The notes below the pieces were generated by a model. It did no database searches, was not told where the DNA came from, and saw only the letters and a program-made list of their open reading frames with translations. The position numbers were made by a program, and so were the translations under genes. A stretch of 64,000 nucleotides of DNA from Escherichia phage RB16. Positions 1,525 to 27,557 of this stretch are shown here, one piece after another; within the stretch, counting starts at the first letter, position 1; each line of letters begins with the position of its first letter. The DNA lies in sequence record NC_014467.1; one strand, written 5' to 3'.

Positions 1525-2169
1525 TTAATTAAACTTATTGTACAGCATGAAGTTTACACCGATTGAACTTAGGGAGGTACAAGCTCGTTCCAGGTCGTCC
1601 GCTTCAATTTCGATAACGAATTTCGTTCGTATTAAAGCTGGCGCGACTTCTTCGACAGAAGGTGTAGTGACTTCTACGACAGGTTTATATACGTTCTTAT
1701 CATGATCAGGAACATCATCGAGATACTTCAACATTTGATTGATGTATCGTTTATCTGAGTATACAAACCGCTTCGCATTCGTCAGAAGAGAACGCATTTT
1801 AGAGCGGGTTGTAACTTTTGTACTTTCTTTGTATCCGCTACTTTCGGTGTTAAGAAAGTTTGGATTGCTATCCAGCATAATGATAGACGCTAGATTGTTT
1901 TTGTGGAAGTATCCCACGAGTTCATTACGAGACTGAGAGAAAACAAGCACATAAGCCTCTTCACCTACCAGATACATTTGTATATGTACTGGCGCTGTAA
2001 ACATTTTGTTTATGATTTTATGGAATCGAGTGTTTTCCGATAAACTGCGTTGTCTTGTATAACTTTTGAAAATGTTATCTTTGACAATGGTCGCCATCGT
2101 TTCGATGTGGTTTAGCGATTTCCCAAGTAACGGGTTCAGAAAAACTTCTTTTTTCGGTACATAAGCCAT
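1525..2169 (-). CDS. hypothetical protein (214 aa)
   Basis: ORF track; no motif recognised. Confidence 0.5.
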   Translation of the reverse strand: MAYVPKKEVFLNPLLGKSLNHIETMATIVKDNIFKSYTRQRSLSENTRFHKIINKMFTAPVHIQMYLVGEEAYVLVFSQSRNELVGYFHKNNLASIIMLDSNPNFLNTESSGYKESTKVTTRSKMRSLLTNAKRFVYSDKRYINQMLKYLDDVPDHDKNVYKPVVEVTTPSVEEVAPALIRTKFVIEIEADDLERACTSLSSIGVNFMLYNKFN

Positions 2170-2185
2170 ATTTCAAATTCTCTTT

Positions 2186-2476
2186 TTAGTGCATGAAAGA
2201 TTTAACGTACTTCAATATTTCTTCACGACATGTGTCAACGCTTGTGTTTTCGGCAATCATAGCATGACAAAGTATCTCACCGTCAAGCCAAAACGTCAGC
2301 ATGTATTGAATATCACGACCTTCTGTTGCTTCCTGATGATACTTGATTTTCGCGAAAGCAGTTTCGATACTTTCGGTTACTGTCAACATTTCGGAATCAC
2401 CATCTACAGCAGCCATTTCCCCAGCTTCTTCGCTGAATTCGCTTTCCAGTTCTTCCCAGTATACTATCGTTATCAT
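2186..2476 (-). CDS. hypothetical acidic protein (96 aa)
   Basis: ORF track. Confidence 0.45.
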   Translation of the reverse strand: MITIVYWEELESEFSEEAGEMAAVDGDSEMLTVTESIETAFAKIKYHQEATEGRDIQYMLTFWLDGEILCHAMIAENTSVDTCREEILKYVKSFMH

Positions 2477-2479
2477 TGA

Positions 2480-2620
2480 TTACCCCAAACATACTTTACA
2501 TTTGCATAAAGGGCATTCAGCCTCTTTGATGCGTAGACGTTTCGTTGTTGTCTTCTTCTCCGTATTGTGATCATATACATGAAGACAACGGAAGCAGATC
2601 ACCCAACGTTTATCCGTCAT
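2480..2620 (-). CDS. possible small Cys-rich protein (46 aa; CxxC...CPLCKCKVC)
   Basis: hand translation MTDKRWVICFRCLHVYDHNTEKKTTTKRLRIKEAECPLCKCKVCLG; below ORF-track size cutoff; overlaps next gene by 11 nt. Confidence 0.2.
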   Translation of the reverse strand: MTDKRWVICFRCLHVYDHNTEKKTTTKRLRIKEAECPLCKCKVCLG

Positions 2621-3077
2621 AACCGCCACCGCACTTAACCTCACCTTCAATGAACAGTTCGCGGTTGTCTCTCAAAAGATTGTATTTCTTTTCGAGTTCC
2701 GGCCCGAATGCGTCAGCGTCTTCATAATAGCTATAATTATAACAACCGCATTCATCATCCCATTCAGGTTCATCACCGCGTTCGTTGAAGTGTACGACTT
2801 TGAGATCGTCAACTCCAGACTCTTTCATTTTATCCCAGATATACCGGATGTCAACGCTATGGTAACTGAATGCTTCAAGGGTGATGTTATCACCATCGAT
2901 TTGAGGGATACCCCATTTAGGACGTTGGTCATCGGTGATGATATCAAGCAAAGATTCTACGTTTTCGTGTCCGTAAATCTTCGCGACCTCTTCCTCTTTA
3001 CCAGGACGAACAAGCCCGATCCCGATAATAAAGCTACTGCTTGAACTGTTACTTACAAAACCAGAACGGATCTTCAT
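2610..3077 (-). CDS. hypothetical protein, paralog family A (shared N-terminus MKIRSGFVSNSSSSSFI)
   Basis: first 17 aa identical to ORF 6488-7000, nucleotide differences synonymous; Cys motif ECGCYNYSYY. Confidence 0.55.
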   Translation of the reverse strand: MKIRSGFVSNSSSSSFIIGIGLVRPGKEEEVAKIYGHENVESLLDIITDDQRPKWGIPQIDGDNITLEAFSYHSVDIRYIWDKMKESGVDDLKVVHFNERGDEPEWDDECGCYNYSYYEDADAFGPELEKKYNLLRDNRELFIEGEVKCGGGYDG

Positions 3078-3265
3078 CGTCTTGCCTCATATTTCGCGTT
3101 CTCAGCGATTTTTTCTTGATAGATGTTATATGACATTACCAGAGGCGCAACCGCCACGATAAGCCCTATAAAGCACACAGAGAACTCACGTTTATTGAAA
3201 GCCAGGAACGCAATTGCGCTCCCGACCACGAACACACCCAGCGCTAATAAGAAGAATAACGTCAT
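3074..3265 (-). CDS. small membrane protein (63 aa, two hydrophobic segments)
   Basis: MTLFFLLALGVFVVGSAIAFLAF...GLIVAVAPLVM hydrophobic stretches. Confidence 0.45.
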   Translation of the reverse strand: MTLFFLLALGVFVVGSAIAFLAFNKREFSVCFIGLIVAVAPLVMSYNIYQEKIAENAKYEARR

Positions 3266-3879
3266 TTTGTGAGGGTGTCCATTTGTTTTGATTTTTCCAA
3301 CAGGGTTTTGATTACCGTATCCATCGCCTGTTCTGTATCACCATCATGATAGATGATCGCGGTTTGATGCAAACCTTTCACCAGACGATTGATAATGTAC
3401 GCCATTTCGGTCGGTAACAGTTTACCCGTTTTGTTGAATTTTTCAAACAGATTGAACAGTTCTTCGTTATTCCCTTTCTTACGGAAATTGAAGTTGTGCA
3501 TCCCAGACAGAAGACTATCCAGATACAGAACTGTTTTGTTATCAGAGCGGAGGTGTCCACCGATTTTGTAGTAGTTGCTGAAAACGTATGGTGCTTCACG
3601 AACATCATCGATGTCGAAACCAGCATCATCGATATTGCCTACGTGGGAGAAGAAATCCGCATCGTTATCGAACAGATTGATCGCGCCTTTCTTGTATGGG
3701 AATCCAGCCAGGTTAATGACTCCCTTTTCATACGCATCATCGTTATCAACGACAACGTATTCAGGAAGCATAGGGGCATATGGTTTGTTTTTGTCGTGGT
3801 TTTCGCGATACGCTAAAGGTTCAGCCAGATAGAGGATATCGCCTTGTTTGACTTCATCCCAAAAGATATTACGTGACAT
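3262..3879 (-). CDS. hypothetical protein (205 aa; start trimmed to MSRNIFWD to avoid overlap with upstream gene)
   Basis: ORF track 3262-4047 trimmed to the Met at 3879. Confidence 0.45.
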   Translation of the reverse strand: MSRNIFWDEVKQGDILYLAEPLAYRENHDKNKPYAPMLPEYVVVDNDDAYEKGVINLAGFPYKKGAINLFDNDADFFSHVGNIDDAGFDIDDVREAPYVFSNYYKIGGHLRSDNKTVLYLDSLLSGMHNFNFRKKGNNEELFNLFEKFNKTGKLLPTEMAYIINRLVKGLHQTAIIYHDGDTEQAMDTVIKTLLEKSKQMDTLTK

Positions 3880-3919
3880 ATTAAATTCCTCAACATGCCC
3901 CCTTTCGGGGGCTATATCA

Positions 3920-6139
3920 TTACAGTTTAACTTCTTTTTCTTCCAGGACGATTTCGCAATCGAATGTTGCACCTTCCCAGAACTTATGCGGGATAATGTC
4001 AGTCGCTTTAACCGATACTTTGGTTTCTTCAAAATCCATATCCGCAAACCAGGCGTGGCCTACAACGATACCGTACATTACACGGCTCAGGCGCTTGTTC
4101 AGTGCGCGTACTTCGTTGATGGTTGCCTTTGTTTCTTTATCAAGGTACTCGATTACCTTATCCTTGTCAAGCGCTGCGAGTTCAGCTTTAACAGCATCGT
4201 AAGCCCACAGGATGATCAGGTCGCCGTTGTTCAGTTTCTTCTTACCTTCGGCACGTTTCGCAACGGTTGCCGCTACAGCAGGAAGGGAGGAAACACCCTT
4301 GATTTTCAGATTCAGTTCTTTCGACATATAAACATCAGTCGAATCGGTACGGGTTACTTTCGGGGAGAATCCATAATCACGAATACCCTGTTCAGATAAC
4401 CATTCACCAGCGGCTTCACCGTATTTCTGTTTCAGACCTTCGGCATTACGTAAACCGATCGCGTCGTCACGGAAGAACTTCATCACCTTCTGGCGACCTT
4501 TCAGGATTTCCAGACGGATAGAGTCGTTTACATACTCTTTACCGGAGATCCCGCGAGTCATCGCACGGTTAACCAGAGGCAGACTTGTAAAGTCAACCAG
4601 AACCGACATACGGTCTTCACCGATTTTTGCCAGCGGCTTGATGGTCAAACCAGAAGCGCGGAGGTTTTTCAGTGTCGGAATATCAGTTTCCAGAGGCAGA
4701 ACTTTAACGTTTACGATACCGTCTTTAACGATGGTAAAGTTACGCACCTGCTTAGTTTCGATCTGTTCAGGCAGTCCCAGTTCTTTCTGTTTGCTTTCTG
4801 GGATAGTTACGTAACCTTGCAGATCCGTGTTAATGGAAATGTTAGGACGTGAACTGTTGCCGACCAGATGTTTAACCGATACTTTGGTTGTTGTCTGGGT
4901 AAATTTCGGTGTCCAGATTTCGTGCGTTACCATTTGTGCGGCTAATGCTTTGCGTTCTTCCGGTGTTTTCGCATTTGCGATCTGTTCTGACAGTTGATCC
5001 AGAGTATCATCTTCTTTCTGTACTGTCTGACGGCCTGTACGGTTGTACGCCCAGTGTTCAGAAGACAGGTCGATCACTGTGTCAGTTTCTGCCAGCAGTT
5101 CTAGAGCATCAACCAGAGTGAATGCGTTTTCGTCTGGAACCATGTTGTAATCAACACCTTCAATCAGACGTTTACCCGCATCAACTACCGCTTCCGCGAT
5201 CAGGTCTTTGGCGTTGGAATAATCCTGCTTAGTAAAGCAGTTATCGTAAGCCTTAATCAGACGAACGTCACCGACTTTTTTCAGCACTTTCCATGCCAGA
5301 TCAGGGTTCATGGTATGAAGTGCATGATACAGAACCACGTACAGAACCTGTTCACCTTCCATCGTAGCTGGATCAAATCCGTCGATATCGTTGATTGCGT
5401 TATCACCCAGCGCCCAGATGTTTTTGATATGCTCAGGAACCAGCACAACACCGTTTGCAGCGTTCAGGACATACACGCGCCCTTCGTCAATGTAGATCGC
5501 ATGGGTAGCATCACCTACTTTAACTTCAATACGCGCTGATGTTTGAGCGGTAATGATTTCAGCAAATGCTGGCTCGTATGCGTCGAAACCTTCAACGAAT
5601 TTATGCAATGCGTTGGTTGCTTCTGCCATTTTTTCCAGCAGAGGACGGTTAACATAGTAACCATATTCCAGGAACGCAATGCTGTTAAACGTCAGAGGGA
5701 GAACCGCACACGCTTTCAGGATGTCATCGGTACGCCAGCAGTTATCATAACCATCCGTCAGGAAGATCAGGCTGTTCAGGTTGCCGTTTTCGGATTGCAG
5801 GTCAGTTGCAATCTCAGCAGCCAGATTCAGAGGTTCGACGAAACCAGTACAACCAGTAGGTTTCAGATAACGGTCGATCGCGGTGCAGATATTGGTCAGA
5901 TCCGATACGTTGCTAACCTTCTCACCACGGAACACAGTACCGTAATCGCCTTTGCTGGAGAAGTACAGGATCGAAACAGTATCATCCTGTTTAACCAGGC
6001 TTGCCAGATTCGCTTTCAGGTGCTTACGAATTTTCGGCAATTCGCTGTACATTGAACCGGAAACGTCGCAAACGAAAACGTGGTTGGTCGGAGTCGGTTT
6101 AGATACTGCATTTTTGAATTCGATATTTGTAATTGACAT
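3920..6139 (-). CDS. von Willebrand factor A (vWA) domain protein, 739 aa
   Basis: N-terminal MIDAS motif VCDVSGSM (DxSxS) and downstream IFLTDGYDN; long C-terminal region of unknown fold. Confidence 0.7.
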   Translation of the reverse strand: MSITNIEFKNAVSKPTPTNHVFVCDVSGSMYSELPKIRKHLKANLASLVKQDDTVSILYFSSKGDYGTVFRGEKVSNVSDLTNICTAIDRYLKPTGCTGFVEPLNLAAEIATDLQSENGNLNSLIFLTDGYDNCWRTDDILKACAVLPLTFNSIAFLEYGYYVNRPLLEKMAEATNALHKFVEGFDAYEPAFAEIITAQTSARIEVKVGDATHAIYIDEGRVYVLNAANGVVLVPEHIKNIWALGDNAINDIDGFDPATMEGEQVLYVVLYHALHTMNPDLAWKVLKKVGDVRLIKAYDNCFTKQDYSNAKDLIAEAVVDAGKRLIEGVDYNMVPDENAFTLVDALELLAETDTVIDLSSEHWAYNRTGRQTVQKEDDTLDQLSEQIANAKTPEERKALAAQMVTHEIWTPKFTQTTTKVSVKHLVGNSSRPNISINTDLQGYVTIPESKQKELGLPEQIETKQVRNFTIVKDGIVNVKVLPLETDIPTLKNLRASGLTIKPLAKIGEDRMSVLVDFTSLPLVNRAMTRGISGKEYVNDSIRLEILKGRQKVMKFFRDDAIGLRNAEGLKQKYGEAAGEWLSEQGIRDYGFSPKVTRTDSTDVYMSKELNLKIKGVSSLPAVAATVAKRAEGKKKLNNGDLIILWAYDAVKAELAALDKDKVIEYLDKETKATINEVRALNKRLSRVMYGIVVGHAWFADMDFEETKVSVKATDIIPHKFWEGATFDCEIVLEEKEVKL

Positions 6140-6149
6140 TTAAATTTTC

Positions 6150-6488
6150 TCAGTATTTGGTTGTTTTATGTGCGTTTAAAATGCTTTGGATTTTTTCGGA
6201 AATCGTTTGCTGGTCTGGTTCACATCCCAACTTACCGCCAATCGCCTTATAAAAATCTTCAACAGAGTTTACGTTAAAATCCTGCATATTGAAACCTAAA
6301 GAGTACATGTGTGGATTTTTGAATTCGTAAACATCTACATCATACTCGTTAAGGTCGAAACGTTCAATATATTTCTTCAAAGAAAATAAATCGAACGGTA
6401 GCGGGAGGTGCTGTTCAATCGTTACAGGTTCCCCCAGCTTATGCGCTTTTAGCGTTGCCGCTTTCGTGTACATCATTTCTTCTTTCAT
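6150..6488 (-). CDS. hypothetical protein (112 aa)
   Basis: ORF track. Confidence 0.45.
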   Translation of the reverse strand: MKEEMMYTKAATLKAHKLGEPVTIEQHLPLPFDLFSLKKYIERFDLNEYDVDVYEFKNPHMYSLGFNMQDFNVNSVEDFYKAIGGKLGCEPDQQTISEKIQSILNAHKTTKY

Positions 6489-7000
6489 CAGTGGTGACTC
6501 TTTGATGTATGTTCAAGGTTGCGGAAAATGTTACCATGTTCCAGTTGGGTTCCAATCGGGCCGCACTCGTCAGAGTACGTAAACTCGTAGATAAACACGC
6601 CGTTTTGATTCCCGTACTTCGTGTTGTATTCTTCATACAGCCACATCTTGATCAGAGCGTCTTTCTCTTCGGTTTCTAAATCGTACCAATCCCGACCATC
6701 ATATGCAAGTGCAATTTGCGGATTTGAACGATAACGGGTTTCCGCGCTGTCTTCGGTTTCCCAATCATAGCGCTTATCATCGTAATACGATTCAAAACTA
6801 TTACCCATATGACCGCCTAAGTCACGGTGAACGTGTTGAACAACTTCTTCGGATGTCAGCGGGGGATTGTAGTAACCGCAATTAGGGGAACATTCACCCA
6901 TCATTTCACGAAGGTTGTTGATATCAGTCGGATCTTTCGGGAACCGGACGATGAAACTACTTGATGAACTATTGCTTACAAAACCAGAACGAATTTTCAT
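6488..7000 (-). CDS. hypothetical protein, paralog family A (shared N-terminus MKIRSGFVSNSSSSSFI)
   Basis: first 17 aa identical to ORF 2610-3077; Cys motif ECSPNCGYYN. Confidence 0.55.
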   Translation of the reverse strand: MKIRSGFVSNSSSSSFIVRFPKDPTDINNLREMMGECSPNCGYYNPPLTSEEVVQHVHRDLGGHMGNSFESYYDDKRYDWETEDSAETRYRSNPQIALAYDGRDWYDLETEEKDALIKMWLYEEYNTKYGNQNGVFIYEFTYSDECGPIGTQLEHGNIFRNLEHTSKSHH

Positions 7001-7242
7001 TTCAACGCCTCGAATTTGATTTCTTTCAGTGATTGTGTGTGATTATAACAAACCACTCCGCGATGTGTTTTCTTTCCGGTAAATCCGTCGAATATGGTGA
7101 CATAATAATGATAGCAACAATCATCAAGAGGATTGTTTCTGATATAGTCTAACACAACGTCTAACGATACGGTAGAGCATACACAGTCAGATTCATTGTC
7201 ACGACCATCATAGAAATCTTTTTCAATACTATAAATTTTCAC
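6997..7242 (-). CDS. hypothetical protein (81 aa)
   Basis: ORF track; ATGA-type overlap with neighbour. Confidence 0.4.
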   Translation of the reverse strand: MKIYSIEKDFYDGRDNESDCVCSTVSLDVVLDYIRNNPLDDCCYHYYVTIFDGFTGKKTHRGVVCYNHTQSLKEIKFEALK

Positions 7243-7481
7243 GATATTTTGCCTTTTCTTTCAGATTTGAGAACGATGTTACTGTAAGGATCCTTTGCTA
7301 CCAGTTCCCACAGGTCGCCAGGATGTTCCCCGCTACGGTAAACAGATGAACGAATGATTTCGTTAAACTTGATCAATGCTTCGTCGATGTCATCATAGCC
7401 ACGTTTCAGAGGCTTACGGTTGCGACGGATGAAGAACATTTCTTTGGTCTTCTCCCAGCGTTCAGAGTTTTTAACCTTCAT
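7239..7481 (-). CDS. hypothetical protein (80 aa)
   Basis: ORF track. Confidence 0.4.
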   Translation of the reverse strand: MKVKNSERWEKTKEMFFIRRNRKPLKRGYDDIDEALIKFNEIIRSSVYRSGEHPGDLWELVAKDPYSNIVLKSERKGKIS

Positions 7482-7770
7482 TGACCTGCCTCATGTTAGC
7501 CATGATTTCTTCAAAAGTCACGGGAATTTCTTTATACTGTTGTGATTCTTCATCCCATACATCGCGATACCCGTATGTTGAACTTTTTGCAATACGTTTT
7601 TCATTTTCCCAAACATCAATAGTAATGTTGTCACCAAGATAAGGAAAATTGTCAACTTTGTTTAAAGCGTCAATACAATTTTGTAACGATTCAGAAACAT
7701 GAACAATTTCAGTGAATTCATAATCGGCACTATAAGAAGAAACGTAAATCATAAAACCCGCACCCACCAA
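7471..7770 (-). CDS. hypothetical protein (99 aa)
   Basis: ORF track. Confidence 0.4.
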   Translation of the reverse strand: MVGAGFMIYVSSYSADYEFTEIVHVSESLQNCIDALNKVDNFPYLGDNITIDVWENEKRIAKSSTYGYRDVWDEESQQYKEIPVTFEEIMANMRQVNEG

Positions 7771-8758: not shown

Positions 8759-9013
8759 TCAAAAAATATGCGTAAGGTTTCCGGCGTTGTTCGGGTATTC
8801 CACGTAATCGCCACGGAATATGTTTAGATCGGAATCGAACTTAAATCCTTGACCCCTGACATCCTCATGACGGGAAATATAAGAACATCCGTACTTTTGT
8901 AGATCTTCCATGTACATTTCAGTGATGCGTTTTGCTTTGTCCATTCCCCGACCTTCAAATCGGGAACGGCGATAATGTTCCAGCAAAAACGCATATAACT
9001 TTTCGTATGTCAC
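8759..9013 (-). CDS. hypothetical protein (84 aa)
   Basis: ORF track. Confidence 0.4.
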   Translation of the reverse strand: MTYEKLYAFLLEHYRRSRFEGRGMDKAKRITEMYMEDLQKYGCSYISRHEDVRGQGFKFDSDLNIFRGDYVEYPNNAGNLTHIF

Positions 9014-9918
9014 AGAACTTTCCTTATCTGTTTGGCTATTGCCTCGATAACTGGCACGGAAACGGAGTTACCCGCTTGCTTGTATGCTTGTTTTTTACTC
9101 GATGGAATAATAAACGAATCTGGGAAGCCTTGCAAGCGAAAACATTCACGCGGGGTTAATCGTCGTGGGTTCTTCCCGTCCTGCAACACCAGACATTGAA
9201 CGCCGTCCTTGTAATATTGCGCGGTGATGGTTCCTGTGTGCGTAGAATCGGCTGTGACGGCCTGATAACCAAAGCCCTTACCGTTTGCCTTATTTCGTTC
9301 CTTACGCTCTCTAAAGCCTTTCCACGCGTTATCTGATAGAGTGTACGAATCATCAGCATCTTCGAGGATATCACCTACGCGCGTAGGGGTACGCGGGGGA
9401 ACCGGAAACGAAAAGAATACATCATCCAGGAAGCAGACAATGAACACGCGTTCACGTCGCTGGGGTAGTCCGAAATCTTTTGTATTCAGTCGCTGATAGA
9501 ATACGTTGTATCCTTCGGCCTCAAGAAGCCCGTAAATCGTTTTAAACGTCTTTCCCTTGTCATGGGTTAGCAATTCAGGCACGTTCTCAAAGAACAGCAC
9601 ACGGGGCTTTTTAGCGCGTATGATGCGGAGGATTTCAAAGAACACCGTACCGCGAGCATCATCAAATCCCAGTTTCAATCCGGCTTTACTGAATGCCTGA
9701 CACGGGAACCCAGCCAACAGGATATCGTGATCGGGTACTTTGTTTTCATCAATGGCAAACAGATCACCCTGTAGGTTATCGTCGCCCCAGTTTTCAATAT
9801 AGGTTTGCTGTGCGTGTTTGTCGATCTCAGACGTTAAAAGGCATTCGACCCCGCCGAATGCATTATCAAATCCAAATCGAACTCCACCAACGCCAGCGCA
9901 GAGGTCAATTATTTTCAT
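9010..9918 (-). CDS. DNA (cytosine-5)-methyltransferase, Dcm-like
   Basis: C5-MTase motifs in order: LCAGVGG (I), FPCQAFS (IV, catalytic Cys), ENV (VI), QRRERVF (VIII), GNSV (X). Confidence 0.85.
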   Translation of the reverse strand: MKIIDLCAGVGGVRFGFDNAFGGVECLLTSEIDKHAQQTYIENWGDDNLQGDLFAIDENKVPDHDILLAGFPCQAFSKAGLKLGFDDARGTVFFEILRIIRAKKPRVLFFENVPELLTHDKGKTFKTIYGLLEAEGYNVFYQRLNTKDFGLPQRRERVFIVCFLDDVFFSFPVPPRTPTRVGDILEDADDSYTLSDNAWKGFRERKERNKANGKGFGYQAVTADSTHTGTITAQYYKDGVQCLVLQDGKNPRRLTPRECFRLQGFPDSFIIPSSKKQAYKQAGNSVSVPVIEAIAKQIRKVL

Positions 9919-10178: not shown

Positions 10179-10447
10179 CAGTTGCTACCCCACGTATAAA
10201 AATCAAATTTTTCGGTTTGCGCTTCTTCAACACGGATCACGTAATCACTGGTATCGTATTTGTCAGCGGTACGGAATTCAACCGAATACACACGAGCAAA
10301 CACAGCATAAAGCGCTTCGCGGATTTTCTCTGCGATCTCTTCATCGGTCTTATCGATATGCAACGTAAGCATATCGGAAACCACATCTTCAACGCGACGA
10401 ACATCACGCTTATCAATGTAACCAGTGTATAAATTTACTTCTTTCAT
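10178..10447 (-). CDS. hypothetical protein (89 aa)
   Basis: ORF track. Confidence 0.4.
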   Translation of the reverse strand: MKEVNLYTGYIDKRDVRRVEDVVSDMLTLHIDKTDEEIAEKIREALYAVFARVYSVEFRTADKYDTSDYVIRVEEAQTEKFDFYTWGSN

Positions 10448-11430
10448 TTGTAATACCTCATAACATGATCTTTGTACACGAGTTCAATGAAGTTATCCCA
10501 GAACTCGCGATCGACTTCTTTCGGATAGGTAGAGATTGCAGCCAGGCGTTCAACTTCACCCATCACTTCCTCCAGTTTTTCCTGTACTTCGGCAAACGGG
10601 ACATTACCAGCTTTAACCGATTTCAACAGGTCACTCTCAGGAAGAGGATAAACGATATCACCGTGCTTGTAAATCTGTACCAACTGCATACCGCCGCGCA
10701 ATGCGTGACTTAATGCTTTCCAATCGATCCCATTGTTGGCTTCTGCTTGTCGTGCGCGTTCGCCATATTCATCCCAGAGCTTATACACGGATTTCTTCAT
10801 TTCCGCTACGGTGATTGTGAACTGGAATTTACGACCCAGAACTTCGTAGAAATTCTGCATACCACCTTTTTCGCTATAATGCAAAATAGAACGACAGAAT
10901 TCATTGGTCGGTAGTTGGTCTTTGATGTCGCCAACTTTGGTATTAACCAACGATGAAGCGTTTTCATCGTAATGTGCATTATCGGTGTCTTGCAACACGT
11001 CATACACTTCACGCAATGCAGCCAGGCGTGAACCCTTAACGCCATATTTCGCGGCTTGCTTACGAACATAACCGAACAGACCAGTTAACTCCGTGGTGTA
11101 GAAACGCCAGCGGTTAGCGCGGATATACTGCCAGATTTCAGAGTTAGCGATCAGCTTGCTATCATCAGCATGAAGCATATCGAGCGCTACGGTATCACCA
11201 TCACACGCAAGGCTGATGAACTTAGGCAGACTATACAACTGACGGTCTACGTCATCAACGGTGTTTTTAGAGTTCTTATCGCCCGTGCTCGTGTCGATGG
11301 TCTTTGGGGCTTTACCCAGTAAGATATCGCGTGGATGCGGGAGAAAGATCCCTTTATAATCTTTGTCGCTTGTCGGGGTGTTCAGTCCGTACAAAAAACT
11401 TCCAAACACCATTTCAACTACGGTTTTCAT
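10444..11430 (-). CDS. nucleotidyltransferase-fold (Pol-beta superfamily) protein, about 328 aa
   Basis: N-terminal VEMVFGSFLYGLNTPTSDKDYKGIF fits hG[GS]x9-13DhD NTase signature; start placed at MKTVVEMVFGSF. Confidence 0.5.
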   Translation of the reverse strand: MKTVVEMVFGSFLYGLNTPTSDKDYKGIFLPHPRDILLGKAPKTIDTSTGDKNSKNTVDDVDRQLYSLPKFISLACDGDTVALDMLHADDSKLIANSEIWQYIRANRWRFYTTELTGLFGYVRKQAAKYGVKGSRLAALREVYDVLQDTDNAHYDENASSLVNTKVGDIKDQLPTNEFCRSILHYSEKGGMQNFYEVLGRKFQFTITVAEMKKSVYKLWDEYGERARQAEANNGIDWKALSHALRGGMQLVQIYKHGDIVYPLPESDLLKSVKAGNVPFAEVQEKLEEVMGEVERLAAISTYPKEVDREFWDNFIELVYKDHVMRYYK

Positions 11431-11947
11431 AAAATTCTCCAAATAATTCTTTCGCTTTCGCTTCGTATACTACACTAGCTTCTTCTGGCGTGGCAAACCT
11501 ACCCAAAAACATATCTTTGCGGTTATGTTTGATTTTAGCTATCCATTTATCACGAGCATTGTCGAAATAGACCCCCTTATAGCCAGATTTATTGGTTTTC
11601 GGAGTTTTTGCTTTCATCGTGTTCTGCTGTTGCGTTACTTCCTGTAGGTTATCTTTGCCATTACCGTTCCCGACCCCGCGTTTATGGTCAACGATAGCGG
11701 GAAGATACCCGTTAGCAACATAGAAAACAATTCGATGAACATAGTACGACTTGCCGTTATATCCTATTGCAGTGTATCCAAATGAATTCGTACTACCCGC
11801 AATACTTCCTACTGTAGCCCTACTACCCCTGTGAACTTTCCAATAACACAACCCTGTGTCAACATCAACCCGAAGAATTTCTAACAATGAATCTATTTCG
11901 CTGCGTTCATCTTCTAGCGTTCTTTTCCACCGTCCGTGGCATTTCAT
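11414..11947 (-). CDS. HNH homing endonuclease with AP2-type DNA-binding domain
   Basis: YVHRIVFYVANGYLP...VDHKRG...DNLQ (HNH_3-like) followed by SGYKGVYF...KWIAKI...LGRF...EEA (AP2-like). Confidence 0.7.
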   Translation of the reverse strand: MKCHGRWKRTLEDERSEIDSLLEILRVDVDTGLCYWKVHRGSRATVGSIAGSTNSFGYTAIGYNGKSYYVHRIVFYVANGYLPAIVDHKRGVGNGNGKDNLQEVTQQQNTMKAKTPKTNKSGYKGVYFDNARDKWIAKIKHNRKDMFLGRFATPEEASVVYEAKAKELFGEFYENRS

Positions 11948-13774: not shown

Positions 13775-14836
13775 TCAAGCAACCCCCGTAAAGGCGTTTA
13801 CTATCTGGAAATGATCATCGAAGAATTCCCCTTGTCGTTGTACGACCTCATGTAAGGGCATCCAGAACGCCTCTGCTGCATCGTCAGCGCCTCCCATAAT
13901 GCGGGGCAGACTTCCATCATTGTTAGGTTCTAACTTGATGTATTGCGCTACAGTCGGTTTTGAGAAGTGTACGGAACGCTTCGGATGATCAAACAACATC
14001 GAATTGCGAATTGAACCACGGATAACCTTTTCAGGAACCTTGATCCGAACCTCTTCGAGCAATTCACGGATCGCACAATCCAGGAATGTTTCGTTTGCGT
14101 TTTTGTGTCCACCTGGCAGGGCCAACGCGCCTTTACCCGGTGCAAACTTACGACGAATTACCAGAAGGTGATTGTTACACACAACCACGCTATCACCCGT
14201 ACAACAGTTTAACGCGTCGGGGTATGGGTACGCTTTGAACTTCTCCAGTTCATCTTCCCATTTCTCGAACTCGTAGTACAAGCGCCAGAACGTATCGGTC
14301 ATCATCCATCCGTTAAGAGAACCCACGACAGCAGCAGGAACATAACGGGCGATCTTCTCGTCCCATCCATTTTTATGTAAAAATATGGTTGGACGCAGGT
14401 CGGTAGCAGATAAATCTTTGCCGTCAACCTTAACCGGATCAACCGGAACATGAGTCCATCCGAACGCTTTAAGCCAGTACGAATCAGCATCTTTTTCGTA
14501 ACCGTAGATCGCGATGTTATCGCCTTTAGTTTCGTCGATTGCTGTACGAACAGAGGTTTTCCATTTTTCTTCATTGTAAAGGTAATCTGGAATCGGTTTG
14601 AATTGCACACGGGACACATCTTCATATTTGAACTCAGACAGTAACCAGCTTGTAATCATACGTTCCCGTTCGGTTGCTGTTAGCGGGTTTAAAACGTTAG
14701 GGTAAGCATAAGCGGAACCCAGGAGGATATAAACGGCCTTCGACTCTTCAAGTGCTTTACGCACCATTGCCGCATGACCATTATGGAAGGGTTGGAATCT
14801 GCCAATTACGACAGCTTTATCAAATTTGTATTTCAT
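13775..14836 (-). CDS. natV: bifunctional NMN adenylyltransferase / Nudix hydrolase (NatV-like)
   Basis: N-terminal GRFQPFHNGH (HxGH nucleotidyltransferase motif) and C-terminal Nudix box GGHKNANETFLDCAIRELLEEVRIKV; start set at MKYKFDKAVVIGRF. Confidence 0.8.
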   Translation of the reverse strand: MKYKFDKAVVIGRFQPFHNGHAAMVRKALEESKAVYILLGSAYAYPNVLNPLTATERERMITSWLLSEFKYEDVSRVQFKPIPDYLYNEEKWKTSVRTAIDETKGDNIAIYGYEKDADSYWLKAFGWTHVPVDPVKVDGKDLSATDLRPTIFLHKNGWDEKIARYVPAAVVGSLNGWMMTDTFWRLYYEFEKWEDELEKFKAYPYPDALNCCTGDSVVVCNNHLLVIRRKFAPGKGALALPGGHKNANETFLDCAIRELLEEVRIKVPEKVIRGSIRNSMLFDHPKRSVHFSKPTVAQYIKLEPNNDGSLPRIMGGADDAAEAFWMPLHEVVQRQGEFFDDHFQIVNAFTGVA

Positions 14837-14861
14837 AACGTGCTCCACGTTTAAAGGGTAA

Positions 14862-14960
14862 TCATAAAACAGACGCAATAATCAATACACCAAGCAAACC
14901 GCCAATAAAGCCGAAGAATAGCGAAATGAAGATAGATAAGATGATCTGTTTTATGTTCAT
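14862..14960 (-). CDS. possible single-pass membrane micropeptide (32 aa)
   Basis: hand translation MNIKQIILSIFISLFFGFIGGLLGVLIIASVL; lies between SPFH gene and natV. Confidence 0.25.
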   Translation of the reverse strand: MNIKQIILSIFISLFFGFIGGLLGVLIIASVL

Positions 14961-15014: not shown

Positions 15015-15941
15015 TTATTTACGAGAATCGAAAATCACTTTACCAGCGTAATCTGAACCCATGACAGTCTGAGGCACATCACCTTTATAACGGGTAGAGT
15101 AGTTCATCTGTACATCCAGTTCTTTCCAGCGGATCATTTCTGGTGTGATGGTACGTTGCAACACGGCGTTCGCTTCTGCTTCTTTCTTCGCTGCATACAG
15201 TTTAGCGTCTGCATCACGTTCGTTGGCGATCGCATCGTTTTCACGCGCCTGACGATTTGCTTCCGCTTGTTTTACCTGTTGCTGTGAAGTCTGTTCGACT
15301 TTTGCCAGTTCCGCACGAGCGGCGTTAACCTGTTCTTCACGAATTTTCGTGTTAGTTACCTGTTCCATGATAACATCCGGCAGGGTGATATCCTGCAAGA
15401 ATACCTGTTTCACGGTGTAACCGTAAGGACGCGCATACTCTTCGACTTCCTGTTGAATTGCGGTCTGCAACTGGTTCTGGATCTTAGCATCAAACAGATC
15501 CTGTGCTTTTGGAACCGATTTGCCGAACTCGCGAACGGTTGACAGCAGTTTTTCGGTTACATACTTATCCAGTGCCTGTTCCTGGTCTCCCGCGTTGATG
15601 CGGTTGATAGGCGCTTTGTTACCGTCAAATTGCAGCATAACGGTCATATCAACAGTGGATTTAAACTTATCCTGTGAAGGAACCTGCAATTTATCGAACT
15701 TCTTCGCAATGTCTTTCGTGCTGAAAGTATCGAAATCAGCCAGCGGGTTTACGATATGGAAACCAGGCAGTACAGGTTTCGGAGAAACCTTACCCATGAA
15801 GGTCTGAGTTTTGACCGTGCCGTCCTGTACTACTGTAAAGGAGTTCGGAACCAGCCACAGTGCGGCTACTACGCCCAGAGCGATCAGAGTGGTTTTCTTC
15901 GGGTTGTTCAGGATAGTATTCATATTCATAGTATGTCTCAT
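15015..15941 (-). CDS. SPFH/band-7 (stomatin/prohibitin-like) membrane protein
   Basis: N-terminal TM helix TLIALGVVAALWLV followed by PHB-like region and C-terminal Ala/Gln/Glu-rich coiled coil typical of band-7 proteins. Confidence 0.6.
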   Translation of the reverse strand: MRHTMNMNTILNNPKKTTLIALGVVAALWLVPNSFTVVQDGTVKTQTFMGKVSPKPVLPGFHIVNPLADFDTFSTKDIAKKFDKLQVPSQDKFKSTVDMTVMLQFDGNKAPINRINAGDQEQALDKYVTEKLLSTVREFGKSVPKAQDLFDAKIQNQLQTAIQQEVEEYARPYGYTVKQVFLQDITLPDVIMEQVTNTKIREEQVNAARAELAKVEQTSQQQVKQAEANRQARENDAIANERDADAKLYAAKKEAEANAVLQRTITPEMIRWKELDVQMNYSTRYKGDVPQTVMGSDYAGKVIFDSRK

Positions 15942-26110: not shown

Positions 26111-26406
26111 ATCATCTTACCATATTTGAGAGTATTCATATAACCGATGATGTATTCAACAACAGCATCGCGTTCTTCTTCACATTCATATCCAGCCCAC
26201 GTTATCGACTGATTATGTGCTAAATGAAACTTAATCGCAGGTTTCCATGTTTTGTTAAGACAAGGAATTTTAGCATCAGTCTCAATCCATGAAACGTGCT
26301 CTACGTTAACAGGATAGTTAATACATTCCACCTCTGCATTACTATTGTATACAAAATGGTCTGCATATAAACGTTTATACGATTTAATTTCTGGTACAAT
26401 AATCAT
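26107..26406 (-). CDS. hypothetical protein (99 aa)
   Basis: ORF track. Confidence 0.4.
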   Translation of the reverse strand: MIIVPEIKSYKRLYADHFVYNSNAEVECINYPVNVEHVSWIETDAKIPCLNKTWKPAIKFHLAHNQSITWAGYECEEERDAVVEYIIGYMNTLKYGKMI

Positions 26407-27557
26407 TTTAACTCCACTGCATAAACATCGGTTTCAGTGGCTTTGTGTACGCGCATATCTTTACCGCATACTGCATAAGCCGGACAGTTACGACAACCGT
26501 TATGATCCTTATTACCGATCAGTTCATTACGGAACTGTTTGGTTTTCGGATGTTCCCAGATATCCTTAATGAAATCGTTCGCTTCCAGGACGTTCAAGCC
26601 TTCTTCCCAACCACCTTCAACCCAGCGTTCGGTAAACGAACAAGGGAAGAACTCGCCTTTCTCGTTGATGTACGAGCTAAACATGGTTGCTTCACAATCT
26701 TCGGCATACTGTTTGTACTGTTCGAAGTTTGGGTGTCCTTCCATCGCTTCAACGAAAGCGGGGGCTGAACAGCTATCGAAACCAAATCCTACACCAGAAT
26801 CAAGGCAATATTCAACAAGTTTTTTGTATTGTTCGCGGGTAACAGTATCCCAGTTCTTACCGCGTCCCTTTTGTTTCAGCCCCAGGAACACAATCGCATT
26901 GACTTGTTTCAGTCGCGGATCATTGCGCACAGCATCAACAACGTTAAACGCATCATCATAGGTTTTAGAGCTAACCATGAAGTGAAGGTTAATTTGCTGT
27001 TGTCCTGCTTCTGCCAGGTTCGCTACCGAGTCGAAAGCGACATCGAAGCCAGCATGTTTATAAACCGATACCGCAACAGCCCCAGCAACAGCCGCTAAAC
27101 GCGCTGCAACGTCTTTTGATACATCGGCAATGGTAAGGTTCGGCACAATGCCTTTAGAACGCGCATAGGCCATCATATCGAACATATCAGGGTTTGTTTG
27201 TCCCTGTGCATCAGCACCGAGGGCGCATTGAGTCAACCAGGGCATTTTATCAATGATAGATTTGAATGATTCCAGATCCATATTGTAGCCGTTAGGGTTG
27301 TTGGACTTGTAACAGAAACCGCACAGCTTACCAGCGGGGCCATTACATTTCGTGGTGATCTCGATATCGAGAATTTCAGGGAAAGGCGCGTATGTCGGAT
27401 CGCTTGCAAAGGTTGTACCCCAACGAGAGAATTCGCCAGTGTCAACATTGAAATTGTAGTTGTACCACTTAGAGCGAGCAAAGCGCATATTACCCTGCTG
27501 GTAAATCATCAGCGAAGGGGCTTTCATTACAGTTTGTGCGCGGTCAATAATATCCAT
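26403..27557 (-). CDS. putative Fe-S / radical-SAM-like enzyme with atypical Cys cluster (about 384 aa)
   Basis: LDIEITTKCNGPAGKLCGFCY (Cx7Cx2C preceded by TxxCN as in radical SAM cores) plus C-terminal CRNCPAYAVCG cluster; start set at MDIIDRAQ. Confidence 0.4.
   Translation of the reverse strand: MDIIDRAQTVMKAPSLMIYQQGNMRFARSKWYNYNFNVDTGEFSRWGTTFASDPTYAPFPEILDIEITTKCNGPAGKLCGFCYKSNNPNGYNMDLESFKSIIDKMPWLTQCALGADAQGQTNPDMFDMMAYARSKGIVPNLTIADVSKDVAARLAAVAGAVAVSVYKHAGFDVAFDSVANLAEAGQQQINLHFMVSSKTYDDAFNVVDAVRNDPRLKQVNAIVFLGLKQKGRGKNWDTVTREQYKKLVEYCLDSGVGFGFDSCSAPAFVEAMEGHPNFEQYKQYAEDCEATMFSSYINEKGEFFPCSFTERWVEGGWEEGLNVLEANDFIKDIWEHPKTKQFRNELIGNKDHNGCRNCPAYAVCGKDMRVHKATETDVYAVELK

Follow-up and report, generated by a model that had tools for sequence, protein, structure and literature searches.

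A short N-terminal tag shared by unrelated small phage proteins and its association with a viral radical-SAM/SPASM enzyme family

We analysed a stretch of 64,000 nucleotides (nt) from Escherichia phage RB16 (NC_014467.1), called the window below, in which two minus-strand genes encode small proteins of 155 and 170 amino acids (aa) that begin with the same 17 residues. This N-terminal segment, the tag, recurs at the start of otherwise unrelated small phage proteins, and it is accompanied in phage genomes by one family of radical S-adenosylmethionine (radical-SAM) enzymes with a C-terminal SPASM/twitch domain, of which the window also holds a member. We lean with moderate confidence towards the view that the tag is the site which this phage enzyme recognizes and modifies, so that the logic of peptides that are made by the ribosome and then post-translationally modified (RiPPs) would be applied to folded proteins. 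The features concerned are as follows.

3027..3077, minus strand: N-terminal tag of the 155-aa protein, codons 1-17 (MKIRSGFVSNSSSSSFI)
2610..3077, minus strand: tag protein of 155 aa; its body ends ...G-G-G-Y-D-G; it belongs to the widespread '...YGAGRNG-COOH' class, c3
6950..7000, minus strand: N-terminal tag of the 170-aa protein, codons 1-17
6488..7000, minus strand: tag protein of 170 aa, phrog_7397, with the body ...YSD-x-DG...LEHG-x-IF-x-L-x-H...SHH-COOH; class c1
26403..27557, minus strand: radical-SAM enzyme of 384 aa with a C-terminal Cys-rich SPASM/twitch domain, the proposed modifier of the tag

An earlier sequence-only reading of the window had noted the identical 17-aa start of the two open reading frames (ORFs) and had described the nucleotide differences in it as synonymous. 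Both statements hold: the two leaders differ at 10 of 51 nt, in 8 codons, and all changes are silent, one of them being a switch between the serine codons AGC and TCA. It means that selection acts on the peptide. A GAGG ribosome-binding site lies 8-12 nt 5' of both starts, and the tag motif occurs two times in the whole genome of 176,788 bp. The same reading called the genes paralogous, which is not matched with the comparison of the complete proteins. BLASTP aligned the leaders only and nothing past residue 18, and the profile-profile comparison of the two body classes gave a probability below 1%. The Cys motif that both bodies were thought to keep must be given up as well: CSPNCGYYN occupies residues 37-45 of the 170-aa protein and ECGCYNYSYY residues 109-118 of the 155-aa protein, the cysteines vary in the alignments even among orthologues of 75-80% identity, and the likeness is not above chance.

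Of the three most widespread body classes, which are essentially single-copy, the window proteins represent two: class c1 (the 170-aa protein) has 36 members in 35 loci, and class c3 (the 155-aa protein) has 24 in 23 loci. At only about 30% identity, homologues of the latter still keep residues 1-17 unchanged together with the exact C-terminus ...YGAGRNG, and the 170-aa protein has an orthologue of 42% identity in locus L002. Neither protein matched a model in Pfam, NCBIfam or PADLOC. For the 155-aa protein, the ESM Atlas search gave nothing but unnamed viral clusters, at 0.87, which is a lead only, and a word-based search with the body of the 170-aa protein alone returned close relatives only, by a method that is unsuited to judging leaderless homologues of the body.

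The PHROG profile phrog_132, named 'head-tail adaptor', matches the 155-aa protein with its positions 48-123 and only over residues 64-147 (E 3e-10). The gene sits among non-structural small ORFs, and no adaptor appeared among the fold matches, which does not exclude one. The 'head-tail adaptor' label is being transferred to this non-structural gene in several recent Klebsiella phage annotations. The phrog_132 profile further has a match in Lactococcus lactis, one of the control genomes.

A profile search, a check that had been proposed, showed that the leader is widespread as an N-terminal tag. It is covered by no Pfam or NCBIfam family. Its consensus is M-K-[IVT]-R-x-G-F-V-S-N-S-S-S-S-S-F, followed by a hydrophobic strand. 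Among 1.84 billion representative proteins there were 8,378 matches at E<=1e-3, and the best 150 carry the tag nearly all at their start; scanning IMG/VR for GFVSNSSS gave 465 matching stretches. In 127 phage loci there are 338 tagged proteins. The 338 unique complete proteins are 19-279 aa long (median 134), and at positions that the search itself had not fixed the conservation is 94% for M1, 98% for K2, 100% for R4, 97% for G6 and 99% for F7. Throughout the fetched loci the tag stands at the exact N-terminus, in 1-13 tandem ORFs of the same strand per 20 kb. One metagenomic protein from the profile search (P0164, 123 aa) has two copies of the tag in one ORF, at residues 1-17 and about 32-48, and is the sole case of an internal copy among the called proteins.

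What follows the tag is highly diverse. The 336 bodies fell into 97 BLAST clusters, 66 of them singletons, and by hhalign only 3 of the 16 largest body classes are related to each other. None of 102 body representatives matched Pfam, and PHROGs covers only two of the body classes. The suggestion that a shared leader on divergent bodies is a targeting or processing signal is therefore kept in an extended form, as a portable tag on about 97 body classes which co-occurs with an enzyme. Leaders with identical peptides (n=380) have a nucleotide identity of 73% within a locus and 65% between loci, which argues against homogenization by gene conversion.

Prokaryote genomes seldom contain the motif (136 pattern matches in 185,579 species genomes), and the confirmed matches resemble phage contigs inside the assemblies; tag and enzyme are both restricted to viruses. 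A 178-kb contig in the assembly of the marine flavobacterium Flagellimonas marina (L129, NZ_JBHSCL010000010.1) is an entire phage genome of KP15/RB43 type, with both tag genes and 77% identity in the 155-aa protein. It is most likely a contamination or a mis-binned phage.

The association of tag and enzyme was found from both sides. When all ORFs of 37 non-redundant tag-centred loci were clustered, the radical-SAM/SPASM family was present within 10 kb in 23 of them, always on the same strand, and the next most frequent family that does not carry the tag was present in 6. In the reverse search, tag ORFs stood no further than 10 kb from the enzyme gene in 67 of 80 enzyme-centred viral loci, without exception on its strand; these 67 loci show the RiPP-type layout of substrate genes with a shared leader beside a maturase. 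Seven of the 13 exceptions are phages of the RB43 group, in which tag and enzyme genes are about 20 kb apart. In 69 of 75 non-duplicate loci, the tag gene closest to the enzyme gene is downstream of it, at a median of 603 nt from the stop codon of the enzyme gene, and the number of tag genes in these 75 loci has a median of 4 and a maximum of 13.

Whole records gave the same picture. Among the tag-bearing records without a nearby enzyme gene, those that are 97%, 95% and 67% complete contain the enzyme elsewhere, and those without any enzyme match are fragments of 4-51% completeness. Two large enzyme-bearing records (86% and 97% complete) without nearby tags have three tag matches each elsewhere, while the reversed pattern used as the control for this check gave 0 matches. 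Every near-complete record checked has both tag and enzyme. For cultured phages, the enzyme is present in 172 records and the 155-aa protein in 172, with near-identical tallies by genus, and Vibrio phage D479 combines the enzyme with three tag genes or more.

In an hmmsearch, the window enzyme matched the profile made for the array-associated family (E 6e-139). Members of this family are about 350 aa long, and the orthologue of the window enzyme in Citrobacter phage Miller is annotated 'radical SAM protein'. The three cysteines of a radical-SAM enzyme are present: C71, C79 and C82, in the motif of the SAM-cleaving cluster, are invariant in 19 homologues, with the spacing CX3CX2C in many homologues and CX7CX2C in the window enzyme. 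Pfam PF04055 matched homologues with E values of 7e-6 to 2e-5, below its gathering score, and the window enzyme with 0.04. The SPASM/twitch domain is also present. Pfam SPASM (PF13186) scored 26.0 bits against a cut-off of 21.5, TIGR04085 was just under its cut-off (25.1 bits against 27), and C263, C288, C306 and C358 in this region are invariant.

In NCBIfam the enzyme family has weak matches to peptide and metalloenzyme maturases, PADLOC gave no match for the enzyme, and the clusters nearest to it in the ESM Atlas are 83-98% viral. Among solved radical-SAM proteins, sequence searches detected BtrN alone as a relative (E 3e-5); models of the anaerobic sulfatase-maturating enzyme (anSME) were absent from the NCBIfam matches (E<=0.1) and from the PDB matches (E<=10). 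When a complex of the enzyme was predicted together with the 155-aa protein, SAM and a pair of 4Fe-4S clusters, it scored 0.14 against a mark of 0.32, which is evidence neither way.

In the original RB43 record the radical-SAM gene (L054:9995-11029) has a 3' frameshift with a stop at 344 aa, so that the last Cys pair is lost, and the 170-aa tag gene (L005:6069-6551), frameshifted towards its 3' end as well, has two 1-nt insertions in T and A runs, leaving an ORF of 160 aa. A joint decay of the two genes in RB43 was rejected, because the re-sequenced RB43-GVA (HE858210.2; L145, L146) has both intact; the frameshifts are probably sequencing errors. In the 262-kb viral record that holds locus L019, a radical-SAM homologue (G003:C1:87418-88458) matches over its full length (E 1e-149) and contains one in-frame TAA, which may reflect a broken gene, a sequencing error or recoding.

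Structure prediction with AlphaFold2 (AF2) gave an alpha/beta sandwich for the 155-aa protein with a predicted local distance difference test score (pLDDT) of 89, and a model with pLDDT 76 for the 170-aa protein; for the bodies, both models are confident. Residues 1-10 of the tag have low confidence (mean pLDDT 43 and 46, respectively), and the first strand starts at residue 13 (Ser13) in both models. Because these low-confidence residues precede the first strand, the prediction for the tag is an exposed tail which is anchored to the fold, and both models are consistent with an accessible tail. Foldseek found nothing significant in the PDB for either model (E>0.2), and the best hits of VIA-align (Z 5.5 for the 155-aa and 3.5 for the 170-aa protein) were generic alpha/beta sandwiches only, none of them significant. 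The tag as a DHH- or HAD-like catalytic motif was considered and rejected, the RecJ matches of the 170-aa model being insignificant (E about 3).

Several tag classes also conserve an exact C-terminus: ...YGAGRNG, ...[IM]S[HNK]H, ...WY[ND]G, ...GGGY and ...DNDNH. In the window the C-termini concerned are encoded at 2610-2630 and 6488-6502 (alignments A1 and A3). Since both predicted folds open with the strand after the tag and close with the last strand, tag and C-terminus may sit adjacent to each other in the folded proteins.

SPASM/twitch radical-SAM enzymes are modifiers of peptides and proteins which are guided by a conserved sequence in the substrate, and the substrates are often encoded just downstream. 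The tight co-occurrence of tag and enzyme points to recognition or processing of the tag by the enzyme. We propose that the flexible first 10-12 residues stick out from an otherwise folded small protein and would insert into the active site of the enzyme, where one of the residues in the invariant stretch V-S-N-S-S-S-x-S-F would lose a hydrogen to the 5'-deoxyadenosyl radical. A single enzyme could serve many tag-sharing substrates in this way, and the 'cores' would be folded proteins of about 100 unrelated families. The genome of phage RB16 may represent the minimal version, with one enzyme and two substrates whose genes are separated by a lineage-specific insertion carrying a von Willebrand factor A (vWA) gene.

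As for the chemistry, BtrN is a radical-SAM dehydrogenase that converts an alcohol to a ketone, and anSME converts Ser or Cys to formylglycine, acting on a serine in a short conserved protein motif. Both are SPASM or twitch radical-SAM enzymes that oxidize a hydroxyl-bearing carbon, which makes them comparable with the phage enzyme. From the relatedness to BtrN and the invariant S-N-S-S-S-x-S, our leading guess is that a serine side chain would be oxidized to a formylglycine-like carbonyl, an aldehyde, with epimerization or a cross-link as alternatives; these two points support serine oxidation weakly.

Several points weigh against modification of the tag by the enzyme. The link is a genomic one, drawn entirely from co-occurrence and synteny. 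In this genome the enzyme gene lies about 20 kb from the tag genes, so the logic of a local operon is absent here. No RiPP-recognition element (RRE) was detected in the enzyme with Pfam and NCBIfam models, including its conserved N-terminal extension of 50-60 residues. The likeness to BtrN is weak and lies mostly over generic cluster-binding segments, and the tag is unlike the substrate motif of the serine-oxidizing sulfatase maturases, since it lacks the (C/S)-x-(P/A)-x-R of anSME substrates. In addition, the conserved exact C-termini are unaccounted for by a model that considers only the tag.

The tag might instead be a docking peptide only. Then the tag proteins would be interchangeable adaptors that steer the enzyme to host proteins, nucleic acids or metabolites, or the enzyme would modify the variable bodies. 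This alternative fits the same co-occurrence data; diverse bodies on one constant element recall adaptor families, and in classical RiPPs the leader is bound while the core is modified. However, 16 near-invariant residues with a run of 5-6 serines far exceed the constraint on known leader-docking motifs, no residue is common to all bodies as a target, and some bodies extend merely about 35-60 residues past the tag. We regard the docking alternative as unlikely. That the serine run is invariant to such an extreme suggests chemistry at the tag in addition to docking, and the tag would most probably carry the modification itself.

It is equally unlikely, in our view, that a factor other than the enzyme reads the tag as a signal for targeting, assembly or stability, the enzyme being merely a syntenic neighbour in the same region of accessory genes. 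The tag could then be a capsid-targeting sequence like that of T4, a zipper for self-association, or a docking site for a chaperone or protease of the host. The internal proteins of T4 (IPI-III, Alt) offer a precedent; they likewise carry a short conserved N-terminus, a capsid-targeting sequence of about 10 residues, on divergent small proteins of T4-type phages. The tag being exposed and flexible in the AF2 models and the distance of 20 kb to the enzyme in this genome would also suit such a signal. But no family other than the enzyme goes with the tag in the searches from either side and in whole records, and this radical-SAM link has no counterpart in the T4 system. The tag differs from the T4 sequence, with no Glu inside and no (L/I)-x-E site for the prohead protease; an L-R-E downstream of the tag in the 170-aa protein is unconserved within its class. 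The genes lie in a non-structural setting among small ORFs, and the closest match to the late promoter TATAAATA is more than 9 kb off. As read from the sequence, the tag is also insufficiently hydrophobic for a secretion signal.

A glycyl radical was considered too. The enzyme would be an activase placing the radical on Gly6 of R-x-G-F, and the tag proteins would be small carriers of it. Glycyl-radical enzymes have the fingerprint R-V-x-G-Y, and the order of basic residue, Gly, aromatic and hydrophobic residue in the tag loosely recalls it, with Arg4 invariant and Gly6 at the conservation given above. The spacing differs by one residue, though, and 11 of the 338 proteins have Ser, Cys, Arg, Tyr or Lys in place of Gly6. 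The enzyme has a SPASM/twitch domain and not the architecture of an activase, and no activase family was matched; an exposed N-terminal tail would protect a radical poorly, and the invariant serine run would be unaccounted for. It makes this possibility very improbable.

To return to modification of the tag, leader-guided maturation by radical-SAM enzymes is a known principle, and its use on phage proteins would be new. Like the RiPP maturases of sactipeptides and ranthipeptides, the phage enzyme is a radical-SAM protein with a C-terminal auxiliary-cluster domain, and as in RiPP systems with multiple precursors (prochlorosin-like, one enzyme for many substrates), one enzyme gene stands directly before one to many genes whose products have a constant N-terminus and a variable rest. 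Unlike the short peptides of RiPP systems, the proposed phage substrates are folded proteins of 50-280 aa in about 97 unrelated classes. The conserved part is only 16 residues long, is far more invariant than usual leaders and is probably itself modified; no RRE domain, protease or exporter is conserved beside the enzyme in the tag-centred loci, and the system is restricted to viruses.

That a SPASM enzyme can act on a whole protein encoded beside it has been demonstrated for CrpC of Methanococcus voltae, which installs thioethers on the protein-sized CrpA (PMC13692751). CrpA is cysteine-rich and receives thioether cross-links, and CrpC has a predicted RRE (PMC13692751). The phage tag, in contrast, has no conserved cysteine. 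Among the papers searched for the motif strings and for phage radical-SAM or leader systems there was no relevant description. Pfam, NCBIfam and PADLOC have no model for the tag or its proteins, and PHROG families exist for few body classes.

The tag proteins are probably effectors of host takeover or counter-defence, because their genes are small, diversifying and non-structural, occur in large phages and have no late-promoter consensus nearby. More tentatively, and short of calling it probable, we suggest a dedicated phage tagging system in which modification of the serine tag by the enzyme licenses about 100 or more effector families for these roles. If modification of the tag is true, it would be a phage-specific system of protein modification by radical-SAM chemistry, a new modification in virology, and would put a common functional handle on thousands of uncharacterized small phage proteins. 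Such proteins can be found in any large-phage genome by the tag, which is a simple marker. The arrays resemble arsenals of diversifying effectors, which makes them candidates for new functions in counter-defence or host takeover. The enzyme may carry out new radical chemistry on serine-rich peptides, and a tag of 16 residues with one enzyme could serve as a tool for site-specific protein modification. Phages of the RB43, Miller and KP15 type, which infect E. coli, Citrobacter and Klebsiella, hold the minimal set of one enzyme and two substrates, which brings the proposal within reach of routine genetic and mass-spectrometric tests.

Between the two tag genes of the window lie four genes of the same strand, present as the sequence-only reading had described them.

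3074..3265, minus strand: protein of 63 aa with two hydrophobic segments; RB43 group only, outside the tag system
3262..3879, minus strand: protein of 205 aa, phrog_7309; RB43 group only
3920..6139, minus strand: protein of 739 aa, with a vWA domain at the N-terminus and then about 560 aa of unknown fold; its gene is conserved independently in large myoviruses
6150..6488, minus strand: protein of 112 aa, phrog_7677; RB43 group only

The vWA domain of the 739-aa protein covers residues 21-176 (VWA_3, PF13768, 29.7 bits against a cut-off of 27; VWA, PF00092, 26.1 against 23.8), and a metal ion-dependent adhesion site D25-V-S27-G-S29 can be read from its sequence. The approximately 560 residues after it matched no family and no solved structure, and PADLOC gave no match for the intervening genes. 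The vWA gene is found in 502 phage records, with about 47% identity over the full length in Ackermannviridae (Limestonevirus and Vi1-like Salmonella phages), and also in Aeromonas, Alishewanella and Rhizobium phages. A GC-rich hairpin (GCCCCC-TTTC-GGGGGC) lies at 3898-3915, within the 40 nt that separate the vWA gene from the 205-aa gene, and is a terminator on the opposite strand in the annotation of phage Miller.

The view of this block as a cassette bracketed by the two tag genes did not survive comparison with other phages. The vWA, 205-aa, 63-aa and 112-aa genes adjoin tag genes in the RB43 group only, and of the four only the vWA gene is conserved in Ackermannviridae and in further phages, where its neighbours differ. 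Elsewhere the two tag classes stand one gene apart (L002, where the gene between them is not homologous to the 112-aa gene of the window) or flank the enzyme gene (L057). Because the intervening genes stand beside tags only in the RB43 group, the block is a lineage-specific insertion into a former cluster of tag genes, and not a purposely bracketed unit. That the leaders are short direct repeats for a recombination which created or moved the cassette, as the earlier idea of a recombination-generated cassette implies, with the peptide incidental, is hardly credible even though they flank a block specific to the RB43 group, since their DNA is 80% identical with a longest exact run of 17 nt and synonymous differences only, the same peptide occurs in thousands of proteins in unrelated DNA contexts, and the block is stable in all 172 related cultured phages.

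The window is from a T4-like phage of the RB43/Miller type (Pseudotevenvirus); positions 2000-7500 are 97.6% identical to Citrobacter phage Miller. Public 'RNA' runs that contain this stretch are contigs of wastewater metagenomes, which are uninformative on expression. A homologue of baseplate gene 25 precedes the region, and then a long series of small minus-strand ORFs follows, all annotated as hypothetical. Upstream in the same direction of transcription there are five further minus-strand genes, which we identified from their translations and the Miller annotation.

9010-9918, minus strand: C5 cytosine DNA methyltransferase
10444-11442, minus strand: NrdC.11-like protein with a nucleotidyltransferase-like N-terminus
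11414-11947, minus strand: HNH/AP2-like endonuclease
13775-14878, minus strand: NMN-adenylyltransferase plus Nudix-like protein
15015-15941, minus strand: SPFH/band-7-like protein with an N-terminal membrane segment

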